A stretch of DNA of 64,000 nt from a phage, in the sequence record PV467749.1, one strand, 5' to 3'. This document shows, piece after piece, positions 30,588 to 50,825 of this stretch. How positions within the stretch are numbered: the stretch's first letter is position 1; every line of letters starts with the position of its first letter. A program made the position numbers and the translations under genes. Below the pieces are notes generated by a model. That model was not told the origin of the DNA. It was given only the letters and a program-made list of their open reading frames with translations, and did not search any database.

Positions 30588-31724
30588 ATGTTACCTTTTG
30601 CAAGAATGGTTAAGTACGGGAACGTAGCACCAGATAAACTAAAAATACGTGATATTGTTGCAGGTGCTAATTCATTATTACTAATAACCGAGGATAATGA
30701 ATTATGGGTGCGTGGTAATAATGCGTATGGCAAATTAGGTATAGGAACTGATACTATAGTGAATGTAACCGAGTGGACTAAAGTTAGAGATGATGTTAAG
30801 TTTGCTTGTGCTAGTAATTTAGTATGCGTTGTATTAACTGTAGATAATAAAATTTTCTACTGTGGTGATCAATGGTTTGAATCTGGTGGTTCGACAAGTT
30901 CTAAAGTTGTTACATGGAAAGATGTTACGACACAATTTAGTGCAGTGAATCTAAGCACAGTTCGTGAAATGAAAATAACTTATTATTGTGTAGGATTACT
31001 TACAAATGATAATAGATTATATGCTAAAGGATATGATAATAACCAATCATTTGGTGGTTCAACAAGCAAAGTTAATGCTGTATTAGTTGCGTCAAATGTT
31101 TCAAAATTCTACACTTCTCTATCTGGTACTATATATTCTAGTACTACTGGTGGTTACTACCGCTGTGGTATAAGCAATACTGGAGCATTGGGTACTAGCA
31201 CAAATTTAACTTCTTATAATTTGTACTCTGCTCCCGAATTTGCATCCGAATGTGCAGTTGGTATGTCAACATTAAACTCTGGTATATTATATTATGATAC
31301 TAATGGTATCACTAGATATGTTATAGCAGGTCAAAATAGAAATTATCAACTAGGTAATTCTTCTTCAAATACCACAAACGTATATTCGTATACAGAATTA
31401 ACCGGATATAGAGGCAGGTTTAGGGATTTGTGGAGTGATATGAATAACTCTGTTCTTTCTTTTGCTATAAGCACAGATGGCAATACTTTATATTATGCTG
31501 GTACTAACAATACACTATCTTCTGGTGATCCTGGTGTTGAATATTCATCTGCATTTAAAGAAGTACCACACGGGTTTAATGATATAACAAAGGTGGTATC
31601 GTTAGCCTATCTATCTATAGTGCAAGATTCAACTGGATGGTATTATTCTGGAAATGCAACTACGTTATATGGTTTGCCATCGAGTGATGAATTTATACCA
31701 TTACCATTACCAACAATAATTTAA
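30588..31724 (+). CDS. RCC1-repeat-like beta-propeller protein, family C member 1
   Basis: Starts MLPFARMVKYGN behind AAGGAGG RBS; repeated Gly-rich motifs such as GNNAYGKLGIG and GYDNNQSFGG. Confidence 0.65.
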   Translation: MLPFARMVKYGNVAPDKLKIRDIVAGANSLLLITEDNELWVRGNNAYGKLGIGTDTIVNVTEWTKVRDDVKFACASNLVCVVLTVDNKIFYCGDQWFESGGSTSSKVVTWKDVTTQFSAVNLSTVREMKITYYCVGLLTNDNRLYAKGYDNNQSFGGSTSKVNAVLVASNVSKFYTSLSGTIYSSTTGGYYRCGISNTGALGTSTNLTSYNLYSAPEFASECAVGMSTLNSGILYYDTNGITRYVIAGQNRNYQLGNSSSNTTNVYSYTELTGYRGRFRDLWSDMNNSVLSFAISTDGNTLYYAGTNNTLSSGDPGVEYSSAFKEVPHGFNDITKVVSLAYLSIVQDSTGWYYSGNATTLYGLPSSDEFIPLPLPTII

Positions 31725-31730
31725 ATACAG

Positions 31731-31787
31731 GCCAGTACTTGATACTGGCTTTTTTTGATTAAATATAGTATAATGAATAAGGGAGGG
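31731..31787 (+). promoter_or_regulatory. Family C intergenic cassette: hairpin, T-run, TATAAT box, RBS (representative)
   Basis: GCCAGTACttgaTACTGGC, T7, TTGATTAAATATAGTATAATGAATAAAGGAGGGAAT then ATG; near-identical copies before most family C genes (e.g. 32948, 34129, 35326, 36518, 41306, 42547, 43800, 45049, 47724). Confidence 0.6.
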
Positions 31788-31790
31788 AAT

Positions 31791-32939
31791 ATGTTACCTT
31801 TTGTAAGAATGTTTGATTATGGAAATGAAGCTCCTACCAACTCTGGTCGTTATAAAATATATTCCAGTGATTCTATGTATCTTCATGATACTTATACTGA
31901 CAAGTTGTATGCATCTTCTGCGACGAATTGGGGTACTGGTACAGGTGTAGCATCGAGTAAATTTATTCTTTGTGCGGAGAATGTTAAACGAGTTCTATTG
32001 GAAGATAACAGTAGTGATTGTCAATTGTATGAAGAGAAAGGTACTGGAAAAGTTTTTATCACTGGTAACACGAAGGCATTCACTGGTGTAACTGATAGAA
32101 AAACTTTGTGGACGGACTGTACTACGTGGATAACATCAAGTGGTATTAATGTTTCTGATATAAAATACATGAGTAGTTTTTATGATATGAAGGTGAATTT
32201 GATAACAAACGATGGTACATTGTATTGTTGTGGAGCTAACAATATATCGAACATATCATCATTTGGTGATGGCACAAACATTAATTCTTTTAACACATTC
32301 AAAAGAGTAGATACTATAACTTCGGTTAAAAAGGCTGTTGGTAACATTTATTTGCGAGAAGATAATACTTTATGGGGTTGTGGTTTTAACTATTACTACC
32401 AGTTGGGCACGGGTAATCAAACTTCTATTACTGGGGTGACGATGATTTCTTCGGATGTTATAGATTTTAATGTAAGTTATCAGAGTACATTTTTTATCAA
32501 ATCGGATAATAATTTGTACGCTTGTGGTAAACAGTTCGGTGCACAATATGGGAACGAATTTGGTACAGGTGGTACTTCCTCTTCTACTGATATACAATAT
32601 AAAACTCCGACATTATTGAGTTCAGGAGTTTATACTCTATATACTTGTGTTGGTAACATGGCATCACATATTGTCAAAGCAGATGAAGTTCTATATGCTT
32701 CTGGATCGAATAGGTTTGGGCAATTAGGTGTTGGTAATAATAATAATCAGTACTCCTATACTCCTTCATATACTTCGTTTAATACTTCGTGTAATTTGGT
32801 ACGCACTCCATCTGGTTCACTTATACTTACTGACACTTCGAAGTTATATTATTCGGGTGCTTCATTTGTAGTAATGGGTGGTGGTGCTGGACAGAACGTT
32901 CTTAATTATACCGAAGTCGATATGTCATTTGTGCAGTAA
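31791..32939 (+). CDS. RCC1-repeat-like protein, family C member 2
   Basis: MLPFVRMFDYGN; GSNRFGQLGVGNN; conserved upstream cassette. Confidence 0.65.
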   Translation: MLPFVRMFDYGNEAPTNSGRYKIYSSDSMYLHDTYTDKLYASSATNWGTGTGVASSKFILCAENVKRVLLEDNSSDCQLYEEKGTGKVFITGNTKAFTGVTDRKTLWTDCTTWITSSGINVSDIKYMSSFYDMKVNLITNDGTLYCCGANNISNISSFGDGTNINSFNTFKRVDTITSVKKAVGNIYLREDNTLWGCGFNYYYQLGTGNQTSITGVTMISSDVIDFNVSYQSTFFIKSDNNLYACGKQFGAQYGNEFGTGGTSSSTDIQYKTPTLLSSGVYTLYTCVGNMASHIVKADEVLYASGSNRFGQLGVGNNNNQYSYTPSYTSFNTSCNLVRTPSGSLILTDTSKLYYSGASFVVMGGGAGQNVLNYTEVDMSFVQ

Positions 32940-33012
32940 ATTAATATGCCAGTACTTGAGTACTGGCTTTTCTTTTTGTATTAAATATAGTATAATGAAT
33001 AAGGGAGGAAAT

Positions 33013-48939: not shown

Positions 48940-48945
48940 AATAAT

Positions 48946-48965
48946 GCCAGTACTCAAGTACTGGC
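48946..48965. terminator. Bidirectional hairpin between convergent genes
   Basis: GCCAGTACTcaAGTACTGGC between plus gene ending 48939 and minus gene ending 48973. Confidence 0.5.
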
Positions 48966-48972
48966 ATTTCTT

Positions 48973-49623
48973 TTACATATTATATAATGTGAATGCAGTC
49001 ACTTTACCAGTTGTTGTTAGTTCATTATAAAGATACTCCAAGATTCTCGCACACTCTAAGTATATCTCGATATCATCATGAATAAGTGAGTACTGAAATA
49101 GCTGTTCTTCAGGTAATTTGTATTGACTTCCTTTTAATGAATTGAGAATATCTTTCACATCATCAAGTACTGGGTAAAGTACGAAATCTTCATCATATTT
49201 TGAAGCAATAAATTCAAATCCACCACCATCAGTACTAGATATACCAATCAGTACTTTATCAATCAAGTTAATGTTTATATAACGGTTGTGATTTGGGTGA
49301 ATTGAAATCTCAAACATACGAGTACTGTTACAATCAACATCAATATACAAATATACATCATTGAATTTATAAGTTAAACAACCGTACTCAAGAAAATCAG
49401 AACAAATAATTGATGAGTTTTTTCTTGTCTCTGCGTAATGCATCTTGATATTCTTTTCACGCATAAGTAATTCGAACTTTGCACTAAACTTGCCACCAGC
49501 AAGATAGTTAGTATTAGGACGTTTGTAACTTGCAACTGGTCGGTGGGATGATGTAAAGTATTTTTTTGTGAATCGTTTCTGTTTAGTGAAATATTCTTGA
49601 TAGAACTTACTTCTTTTATTCAT
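48973..49623 (-). CDS. Hypothetical protein inserted between family C members
   Basis: Track ORF 216 aa on the opposite strand; shares the bidirectional hairpin at 48946-48965. Confidence 0.55.
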   Translation of the reverse strand: MNKRSKFYQEYFTKQKRFTKKYFTSSHRPVASYKRPNTNYLAGGKFSAKFELLMREKNIKMHYAETRKNSSIICSDFLEYGCLTYKFNDVYLYIDVDCNSTRMFEISIHPNHNRYININLIDKVLIGISSTDGGGFEFIASKYDEDFVLYPVLDDVKDILNSLKGSQYKLPEEQLFQYSLIHDDIEIYLECARILEYLYNELTTTGKVTAFTLYNM

Positions 49624-49700
49624 GAGTACCTCAATTAAATCGCTGTAAAATTGTACATTATAAAATGATTAAATAAAGTATAACACAAGGAGATTTTATC

Positions 49701-50825
49701 ATGTTACCTTTCGTATTGTTATTTGATTATGGGAACGAAAAACAAGAAAGTTCTTATGATGTTAGTGTATATGGAAACAATAACTACATTTTAAATAAAC
49801 AAACTGGAAACCTTTTTGCATCCGGTGCTGCGGCATTCATGGGTGATAACACAGTTAAGTATTATATTACCCAAATAGAATCAAATGTTCATAGCTGTGA
49901 GATAGGTTTCCTATCATCATGGATAATTAAGAAGGACAAAACTGTTTTCATTTTAGGAAACAAAAGCAGTATAGGATTAACTGGTTCGACAACATCATGG
50001 TTCGAAATTACAAATTTATTTTCTGCTGTTCCTGAAATATGGGACAACCTATTTGAATGTAAAGTTCAATTGGGATATAACTGTATACGTGTTATGACAC
50101 CACTAGGATCAATCTATGCGATTGGTACAAACACTTATGGTGCATTGGGTACTGGTACTACATCCTCATCAACTTCGTTCGTTAAAAGTGGTGCTGTGGA
50201 TGCTGTACGCATGGAATCAACAGAACGTTCAGTGTTCTATCAAAACAGTTCTGGACAATGGTTTGGATGTGGTGATAACACATATGGTATACTAGGTCTA
50301 GGAACTACCGCGAGTCGTGTAAACTCATACACCGCACCAGTATGGACTAATGCAGAAGCTGTTAGCTTCTCTAACCGTGGGATCATATACAGCCTCAATG
50401 GTACTCTATACTCATGTGGTGACAAAGTTAATGGTCAGCTAGGGGATGGATATACACAAAGCATAGACGCTGCCAGGAGCACACCATACACCATAGGAAC
50501 CGCATTCCAAATTGGTAAGGCAATAACATCAGCTACACAAGCATCAGCCAACGTATTCATTGGTAAAGATAATAAGTTCTATGGTACTGGTAGTATTGCT
50601 GCTGGTATAAATGGTAGTACTAGTGCTGCATTAAGTAAAGTTACTGCGTTATCAGCAGCACTACCACCTGACATTACATACAATGATATTATAACATTTA
50701 ATACAGGGACCGTAACTTTTATTCAAGCAAAAGGACAACTATATTATGTTGGTAGAAGAACTTACATAGATAATAGTTCAGACGTTACCACACAGTTCAG
50801 TGTAATTGGTGGCTTAGATAATTAA
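49701..50825 (+). CDS. RCC1-repeat-like protein, family C member 16
   Basis: MLPFVLLFDYGN; GDKVNGQLGDGY, GDNTYGILGLGT; different upstream region. Confidence 0.65.
   Translation: MLPFVLLFDYGNEKQESSYDVSVYGNNNYILNKQTGNLFASGAAAFMGDNTVKYYITQIESNVHSCEIGFLSSWIIKKDKTVFILGNKSSIGLTGSTTSWFEITNLFSAVPEIWDNLFECKVQLGYNCIRVMTPLGSIYAIGTNTYGALGTGTTSSSTSFVKSGAVDAVRMESTERSVFYQNSSGQWFGCGDNTYGILGLGTTASRVNSYTAPVWTNAEAVSFSNRGIIYSLNGTLYSCGDKVNGQLGDGYTQSIDAARSTPYTIGTAFQIGKAITSATQASANVFIGKDNKFYGTGSIAAGINGSTSAALSKVTALSAALPPDITYNDIITFNTGTVTFIQAKGQLYYVGRRTYIDNSSDVTTQFSVIGGLDN

Follow-up and report, generated by a model that had tools for sequence, protein, structure and literature searches.

Between 30.5 and 50.8 kb of a 64,000-nucleotide stretch of phage DNA (sequence record PV467749.1; the whole stretch is referred to hereafter as the window) lie 16 tandem paralogous genes on the + strand, here named family C, whose products all begin with a closely similar peptide of 12 residues, the tag. 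DNA and protein searches assigned the window to the Asteriusvirus group of ~350-kb Escherichia coli jumbo myoviruses, which includes WPEC3, fEgEco12, CMSTMSU, 121Q, PBECO4, phAPEC6 and G17. An earlier reading of the DNA letters (the original prediction) had singled out the peptide as a possible targeting, processing or anchoring signal. The analysis presented below leads us to regard the dodecapeptide as, most probably, a portable N-terminal tag for incorporation of variable protein bodies (the cargo) into the virion. The family C genes and their tags are as follows.

30588-31724, + strand: C01, predicted RCC1-like propeller gene; tag MLPFARMVKYGN at 30588-30623
31791-32939, + strand: C02; tag MLPFVRMFDYGN at 31791-31826
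33013-34122, + strand: C03; hybrid tag MLPFVRMVKYGN at 33013-33048
34191-35318, + strand: C04; tag MLPFVRMFDYGN at 34191-34226
35389-36510, + strand: C05; tag MLPFVRMFDYGN at 35389-35424
36582-37763, + strand: C06; tag MLPFVRMFDYGN at 36582-36617
37838-38968, + strand: C07; tag at 37838-37873; divergent upstream cassette (AAATACATTATAAT)
38979-40181, + strand: C08; tag MLPFARMVKFGN at 38979-39014
40190-41299, + strand: C09; tag MLPFVRLFDYGN at 40190-40225
41370-42539, + strand: C10; tag MLPFARMVKYGN at 41370-41405
42613-43792, + strand: C11, frameshifted copy; tag MLPFVRLFDYGN at 42613-42648
43864-45042, + strand: C12; tag MLPFVRMFDYGN at 43864-43899
45113-46288, + strand: C13; tag MLPFARMVKYGN at 45113-45148
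46368-47717, + strand: C14, 449 amino acids, aligns with family C; tag MLPFVRMFDYGN at 46368-46403
47788-48939, + strand: C15; tag MLPFARMVKYGN at 47788-47823
49701-50825, + strand: C16, the most divergent member of family C; tag MLPFVLLFDYGN at 49701-49736; variant cassette (AAATAAAGTATAAC)

The tag is the most conserved part of family C proteins

A six-frame motif scan of the 64-kb window returned the peptide 16 times, each time at the true start of a + strand family C gene, and nowhere outside family C starts; the range in which the peptide had originally been placed (30588-49740) is exact as judged from these 16 starts. The true start is the ATG of MLPF, 7-9 nucleotides (nt) past AAGGAGG, and the program-made open reading frame (ORF) starts at 31755 (TTG), 32878 (GTG), 37823, 40169, 45047 and 47722 are upstream artefacts. 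All members are single-gene units other than C07, C08 and C09, which form an operon-like trio at 37838-41299 with gaps of 10 nt and 8 nt and neither terminator nor promoter between the genes. The ORF opened by the tag of C11 comprises 59 codons (...SLYMRGRKPISKNGSYWFI), and the sequence of the propeller body (GNQSAKMGVTG...) resumes in the next frame. The break, at ~42740-42760, could mark a pseudogene, a sequencing error or slippage.

The window tags take the form M-L-P-F-(V/A)-(R/L)-(M/L)-x-x-(Y/F)-G-N in 16/16 family C genes, frameshifted C11 included, with only M1, L2, P3, F4, G11 and N12 invariant and positions 5-10 limited to few values. Two main forms, MLPFVRMFDYGN and MLPFARMVKYGN, are accompanied by the C03 hybrid MLPFVRMVKYGN and by L6, L7 and F10 variants (MLPFVRLFDYGN in C09 and C11, MLPFVLLFDYGN in C16, and the F10 tag of C08). 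The original description of an invariant dodecapeptide on every member thus stands for its presence on all 16 but not for its strict invariance, which is confined to six positions, and the two subtypes described therein are the main forms without being the only ones. The claim that the first 12 residues are far more conserved than the rest was borne out in full, well above what chance would give: pairwise identity averages 83% over residues 1-12 and 20% (range 14-50%) over the remainder of the protein. The second-best 12-column window of the family C alignment reached only 32% identity, and three glycines were the only invariant columns outside the tag in an alignment of 25 sequences including database homologues. 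The bodies of C01 and C05 are 50% identical, yet their tag subtypes differ, and metagenomic relatives have orthologous bodies with either subtype, the C14 orthologue carrying the other one. Because orthologous bodies bear either subtype, the subtypes cannot be taken to distinguish two classes of cargo.

Family C bodies are predicted RCC1-like propellers with the tag outside the fold

Pfam RCC1 or RCC1_2 scored above cut-off in 7/8 family C members scanned; C14 had no Pfam match. AlphaFold2 modelled C03 (predicted local distance difference test [pLDDT], 91.5; predicted template modelling [TM] score, 0.90) and C15 (pLDDT, 85.8; predicted TM score, 0.86) as beta-propellers, and the best PDB matches returned by Foldseek were UVR8 (E = 1e-22, TM ~0.8), the HERC2 RCC1-like domains, RPGR and RCC1. 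On the basis of these models and of the Pfam repeats, the cargo of all 16 window genes is predicted to be an RCC1-like seven-bladed propeller. The GenBank and PHROG names given to such proteins ('DNA condensation protein', 'regulator of chromosome condensation') reflect the fold only. A basic, DNA-binding cargo was considered and rejected, the composition of the proteins (K+R ~6%, D+E ~6%, G+T+S+N 39%, median isoelectric point 7.6) not being of that kind.

Residues 1-11 are modelled in both proteins as coil with pLDDT <50 (residue 4 of C15 excepted), the first strand begins at residue 20 in C03 and residue 22 in C15, and the ring is closed by the strand spanning residues 20-25 or 22-27, respectively. 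The tag is thus placed outside the propeller by the two models, and not in its core, the location that would have spoken against a signal. An N-terminal 'velcro' strand closing the ring had also been considered, since RMFDYGN resembles the hh.xGN end of the internal repeats, or the ..lWvrGNN piece of the RCC1 repeat. Because residues 1-11 are low-confidence coil and the propeller starts only at residue 20 or 22, however, a buried or ring-closing strand is ruled out in these models, and the same tag is found on Kelch, LamG, glycine-rich and other non-propeller proteins (see below). The idea was dropped on these two grounds and we consider it scarcely tenable.

The tag is carried by unrelated protein bodies in related jumbo phages

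When the dodecapeptide was sought in other phage proteins, it was found on at least nine unrelated protein bodies in a set of ~16 related ~350-kb genomes. Grouping the 117 tagged ORFs by body gave at least nine clusters with no detectable similarity to each other, representing four superfamilies in Pfam (RCC1, Kelch, Laminin_G_3 and Gly_rich_2). Body types include RCC1-like and Kelch propellers, an RCC1+Kelch fusion, several Laminin_G_3/ConA-like families, Gly_rich_2 proteins and small families devoid of Pfam match. The tag always occupies the extreme N-terminus and is followed by a short stretch, usually with proline. In Erwinia phage Kaldavass, MLPFP[IQR][LIM]xxYGN heads RCC1-like proteins, the RCC1+Kelch fusion and non-RCC1 proteins of 170, 206 and 213 amino acids, the tagged genes being separated by ~10 nt that contain neither promoter nor terminator. 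Salmonella phage Munch has MIPF[ATS][RK][IM]LxYGN on RCC1-like proteins, a 267-amino acid glycine-rich protein and a 233-amino acid protein, with several tagged genes overlapping the preceding gene. On RCC1-like and glycine-rich proteins of Serratia phage BF the tag reads MLPFPIIS.., and on gp372 it is MLPFARIVEYGN. Unannotated tagged ORFs were also noticed in phAPEC6: one of ~244 amino acids, glycine-rich (MLPFGRMVKYGNKIEYKPDGEQ...), at L004:7325-8060, where gp004 is annotated in another frame, and two more at 2434 and 6063.

A degenerate DNA pattern of the tag matched 37 stretches in IMG/VR, clusters of several hits being found only in jumbo contigs of 348-378 kb or a 109-kb fragment, among them 121Q, BF, GAP32 and CBB; single matches elsewhere look like chance. 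The same type of scan on metagenomes returned mostly single chance matches along with additional arrays belonging to this phage group; it revealed no new type of cargo with a known function. As far as these sequences tell, the tag is common to a clade of ~350-kb Enterobacterales jumbo myoviruses (Asteriusvirus, Munch-like phages, Mimasvirus CBB, GAP32, Eneladusvirus and Kaldavass-like phages). We came across no account of the motif in the searchable literature, and PDB sequence searches with the LamG-like and glycine-rich tagged proteins returned no match.

Homologues of the LamG-like body occur in the unrelated myoviruses CR9 (Cronobacter), 4MG (E. coli) and PhiEaH1 (Erwinia). Instead of the tag, these proteins begin with MxExLLxGGxK..., followed by the same LLDIDF..IGST core as in the tagged body. 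A different N-terminus on the same LamG-like core is what would be expected if the first dozen residues were a lineage-specific adaptor, and the CR9/4MG/PhiEaH1 motif may be a second adaptor of this kind. The forms of this motif were MNEILIVGGQKK, MEEMLLVGGGKS, MEANLLGGQKRS and MFESNLMGKKSG, and the homologues lie at L047:4995-5639, L048:1781-3120 and L049:3953-4603.

A repeated cassette extends across the start of the tag

Part of the conservation lies at the DNA level, a point missed by the original prediction. It spans the ATG into non-coding DNA, from ~-70 to +40. Upon alignment, 11 intergenic spacers proved to be near-identical copies of one cassette, and three more to be variants thereof.

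31725-31790, + strand: cassette example, with hairpin GCCAGTACTTGATACTGGC, T-run, AAATATAGTATAAT and AAGGAGG 7-9 nt ahead of the ATG
32940-33012, 34123-34190, 35319-35388, 36511-36581 and 41300-41369, + strand: cassette copies 2-6, by alignment
42540-42612, 43793-43863, 45043-45112, 46289-46367 and 47718-47787, + strand: cassette copies 7-11, by alignment
30500-30587, 37764-37837 and 49624-49700, + strand: variant cassettes, by alignment

The order of elements within the cassette is a hairpin, GCCAGTACTTGA(G)TACTGGC, with its T-run; the motif (G/T)ATTAAATATAGTATAAT; GAATAAAGGAGG; and, after 7-9 nt, the ATG. There are 24 terminator-like sites where 8.1 +/- 3.1 would be expected. The stems of these hairpins, e.g. 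at 32948-32967, 43797-43822 and 48943-48968, were also seen to share their sequence (GCCAGTACT..AGTACTGGC, with AGTACT palindromes) beyond mere shape, and looser CAGTACT..TACT matches are dispersed through the 5-30 kb region of the window.

The promoter-like motif AAATAnnnTATAAY has 14 matches in the window (0.79 expected), at sites from 30558 to 49684, all of them ~30 nt upstream of family C starts; it is absent only before C08 and C09. The survey of this motif took in loci L002, L004, L006 and L046 besides the window, and the motif also precedes tagged genes in phAPEC6, 121Q and Munch, one of the Munch genes being non-RCC1. No match was found in 49 kb of the late/structural region of phAPEC6, where genes have a T4-like TATAAATA element. 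Because the promoter-like motif is found only upstream of tagged genes, these genes look like a regulon of their own, and the pattern suggests an apparently separate regulon with a promoter-like element of the AAATAnnnTATAAT class. Three other assignments were tried and rejected. A consensus scan for sigma-70 promoters found TATAAT, but none of the cassettes had a -35 hexamer at 16-18 nt; the cassette is devoid of TATAAATA, the element of phAPEC6 late genes, and thus does not qualify as a late promoter; and 5' mRNA structure or sequestration of the Shine-Dalgarno sequence was discarded, as AAAGG-CCUUU pairing appeared in minimum-energy folds but with z-scores of only -1.6 to +0.8. This pairing disappears where the proline codon is CCA.

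The uniformity of the cassette reaches into the coding sequence. Codon identity at identical residues was 0.78 within the tag (0.46-0.47 expected); codons 2-3 are fixed in the window and codons 4 and 6 nearly so (pairwise 0.87 and 0.86 vs 0.59 and 0.28 expected). Codons 10-12 in the window drift at the expected rate, and the GGG and AAG used in the tag are non-preferred codons. The repeated cassette homogenises codons 1-7 of the tag in the window. The first ~20 nt of the tag also belong to a repeated terminator/promoter-like/ribosome-binding site cassette, which recombination or gene conversion may keep homogeneous, allowing cargo genes to be shuffled. Orthologues with >60% identity exist in phAPEC6 for 6/16 window genes, in a different order.

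The peptide itself is under purifying selection

The extension of conservation across the ATG, the excess of codon identity including fixed codons 2-3 and non-preferred GGG and AAG, and the uncoupling of tag subtype from body phylogeny could all be accounted for if the first codons were simply part of a cassette whose copies gene conversion or the demands of translation initiation keep alike, the peptide itself being functionless. Several observations are at odds with this explanation. C07, C08, C09 and C16 retain the peptide with different or no cassettes; C08, which lies without terminator or promoter behind C07, uses other synonymous codons (GCG, AGG), and C09 likewise follows C08 without a cassette. 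Kaldavass, BF and Munch hold the peptide with other codons and in abutting or overlapping genes, and the 5' mRNA structure is unremarkable, as stated above. Among the 117 tagged ORFs, whose consensus is M-[LI]-P-F-[PAVS]-[RIQ]-[ILM]-x-x-Y-G-N, P3 is encoded by CCA (72), CCT (38), CCG (5) or CCC (2), Y10 by TAT (51) or TAC (48), and G11 by GGG (44), GGA (27) or GGT (23), with synonymous sites at N12 likewise free to vary across genomes. That synonymous codons vary at invariant residues shows that the tag is kept by purifying selection on the protein. The original prediction had named constraint from the ribosome-binding site region alone as an explanation that would undo it; the tag was found to be kept where both upstream DNA and codons differ, and nucleotide-level constraint as the sole cause is contradicted by the evidence and, in our estimate, very improbable.

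Tagged proteins are enriched in the virions of related phages

The phage CBB has 11 tagged genes (CBB_144, 247, 536, 537 and 548-554), and its virion was analysed using electrospray ionization tandem mass spectrometry with 55 proteins detected of 554 ORFs (PMC5259590). Nine of the 11 tagged proteins are in the published virion table, with coverage of up to 51% (hypergeometric p = 2.4e-8). Two of these, CBB_144, which stands alone between nrdD and nrdG, and CBB_247, which lies amid recombination genes, are isolated from the other tagged genes; genomic context therefore does not explain their detection. The authors of the CBB study argued that one should look for the tail 'hair' genes among structural genes missing from GAP32; six virion proteins are present in CBB but not in GAP32, and all six are tagged. 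In phAPEC6, gp003, 005, 006, 007, 009, 010, 549 and 551, all tagged and of ~30-42 kDa, are virion proteins (8 of 11-15 tagged; p = 2e-6 to 6e-5), and are named 'DNA condensation' or hypothetical proteins in the virion list (PMC7247149). In GAP32, gp001, the sole RCC1-like protein there, is tagged and was detected by mass spectrometry.

Since portability, disorder outside the fold and enrichment in virions are three independent lines of evidence, they support what had been proposed at the outset, namely a signal for targeting or anchoring, by which variable domains become attached to a virion structure that they have in common. The layout of the proteins comprises the tag (residues 1-12), a short and often proline-containing linker (~13-19) and an autonomous binding-type domain. 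The free N-terminal peptide would bind a common putative acceptor in the particle, thereby recruiting whichever domain comes next, and this acceptor may lie on the outside, e.g. on hair-like fibres or decorations. The window does not include the baseplate and fibre genes, among which candidates for the acceptor would lie.

A number of points weigh against this interpretation. The virion proteomes are those of relatives (CBB, phAPEC6 and GAP32) rather than of the phage from which the window comes; the phAPEC6 list holds clear non-structural proteins (topoisomerase, RecA-like, SSB and thymidylate synthase) and its RCC1-like proteins were covered to only 3-17%; and the tagged Kelch proteins CBB 550 and 554 were not detected in the CBB virion. 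The tagged genes have TATAAT-type promoter-like elements and not the T4-like late TATAAATA, which is unusual for virion components. Tag loci were collected with a pattern demanding YGN, such that the frequency of YGN is overestimated. Finally, peptide binding is a step that we infer, with a putative acceptor, and the external location is drawn from cargo type and composition and from nothing else. Taking both sides together, we consider incorporation into the virion the probable function of the tag.

The tag could alternatively be a signal for some other process (recognition by a chaperone, an assembly factor or a Clp-type protease, or control during translation), its association with virions then being indirect. 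It is exposed and unstructured, as such a signal would be, these phages encode Clp-type proteases, and the promoter-like motif unique to tagged genes in the window suggests a separately controlled regulon. Nothing specific favours any of these processes, however, and it is with presence in the particle that the tag correlates most strongly; we regard this possibility as quite improbable.

Docking on the outside of the particle is favoured over capsid targeting

In T4, diverse internal proteins are brought to the scaffolding core by a capsid targeting sequence (CTS), which is subsequently removed by cleavage (PMC3012670), and the tag could work likewise, binding the prohead scaffolding core, bringing the cargo inside the head and being removed by the prohead protease. 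The logic of the T4 internal proteins, i.e. a hyperplastic locus encoding unrelated virion proteins with only an N-terminal sequence of ~10 residues in common (PMC3012670), is the same, and genes for a scaffold and for a gp21-like prohead protease are present in these phages. In addition, phAPEC6 has an inner body for which its authors proposed the RCC1-like proteins as candidates, and non-late promoters would suit proteins acting early after injection. The site for the protease, however, is not conserved: Glu is found at position 9 in 12/117 tags, the window has D or K there, and positions 1-14 have no conserved acidic residue, which leaves the cleaved T4-style sequence offered as an example in the original prediction without sequence support. 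By composition the cargo is not of a basic or DNA-binding type; lectin-like, Kelch and glycine-rich domains are found more typically in proteins that bind surfaces; and the low spectral coverage in phAPEC6 fits poorly with a multi-megadalton inner body made of RCC1-like proteins. Capsid targeting thus appears unlikely, although less so than the other alternatives considered here.

Docking onto an outer surface structure of the particle is favoured instead, because the cargo consists of lectin-like, propeller and glycine-rich binding modules, and because composition is fibre- or adhesin-like with no conserved Glu for a gp21-type protease. A bolder and rather tentative version, which we would not put forward as the probable one, is that the tag acts as a 'zip code' of the 121Q/CBB/GAP32/BF jumbo phages, by which 10-20 swappable lectin-like and propeller adhesins per genome are mounted onto one surface acceptor, possibly the hair-like fibres, with expression from the AAATAnnnTATAAT regulon and shuffling from phage to phage of the kind mediated by promoter-early stem-loop (PeSL) cassettes, here taking in the first codons of the tag. 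The 'DNA condensation proteins' would then be an adhesion and host-range system.

Surroundings of the array

The array is interrupted between C15 and C16 by an untagged minus-strand ORF at 48973-49623 (-), which resembles another at 27818-28477 (-) in length (~217 amino acids each) and sequence character. The flanks of the array (1-30500 and 50860-64000) consist of long runs of small minus-strand ORFs, and GC skew changes sign at ~26 kb and ~50 kb, matching the switch in transcription strand.

Significance and relation to known systems

The tag provides a simple sequence rule that predicts virion proteins among the ~550-670 mostly unannotated proteins of a jumbo phage, even where the genes are scattered among metabolism genes, as is CBB_144. 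A large gene family to which wrong names are widely given ('regulator of chromosome condensation', 'DNA condensation protein') is thereby reinterpreted, the hair-like appendages of phAPEC6, 121Q and CBB, so far unexplained, gain concrete candidates, and the assembly mechanism becomes directly testable. If its mode of action were that of the T4 CTS or of the KP32 docking peptide, the tag would serve as an engineering handle to load or display cargo on jumbo phages; were the 'zip code' proposal to hold true, a handle for the display of foreign proteins on these phages would be ready for use. The fusion of a coding tag to a mobile regulatory cassette would let the protein repertoire diversify while expression and targeting stay constant.

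The cargo shares its fold with the RCC1 and RCC1-like domain (RLD) propellers UVR8, HERC2 RLD, RPGR and BLIP-II, but is not basic in composition and gives no indication of chromatin or DNA binding. As to the tag, the CTS of the T4 proteins IPI-III and Alt is likewise a short N-terminal peptide and the sole common part of diverse, fast-changing virion proteins from a hyperplastic locus (PMC3012670), and the phages studied here, which encode a gp21-like protease and a gp55-like late sigma factor, are distantly related to T4. The tag, however, bears no sequence resemblance to the T4 CTS and lacks the conserved Glu cleavage site, and its cargo consists of propellers and lectin-like domains of 20-75 kDa, in contrast to the small basic proteins of T4.

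The arrangement between genes recalls the PeSL cassettes of T4-like phages, which mediate modular shuffling (PMC2839356, PMC4122927). Both have a repeated stem-loop terminator and promoter-like element between variable genes of a hyperplastic region (PMC2839356, PMC4122927), and both are tied to gene gain, loss and reordering, here seen in the reordered phAPEC6 orthologues (6/16 at >60% identity). The cassette together with the first ~20 nt of the tag may thus be described as PeSL-like because of the near-identical spacers, the uncoupling of subtype and body, and this reordering. It differs from PeSL cassettes in extending through the ribosome-binding site into the first ~20 coding nt, in having no -35 hexamer at 16-18 nt and in being limited to tagged genes.

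The secondary receptor-binding proteins (RBPs) of phages offer a further parallel. Their conserved N-terminal peptide, which is able to bring foreign cargo along, docks on a T4gp10-like branching domain (PMC13352976); the cargo folds without this peptide, and the peptide is needed, and suffices, for unrelated cargo to be mounted on the virion (PMC13352976). The tag-linker-domain layout and the portability described here match those of the secondary-RBP docking peptide. The cargo of that peptide, however, consists of trimeric tailspikes or depolymerases, present in one or few copies per phage, whereas the tag, which belongs to a different sequence family, heads 10-20 presumably monomeric binding domains per genome, these being RCC1 and Kelch propellers, Laminin_G_3 and Gly_rich_2 domains and not trimeric tailspikes or depolymerases. 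What is new relative to known docking peptides is thus the sequence family, the breadth of cargo, the occurrence within one clade of jumbo phages and the fusion to a shuffling cassette.

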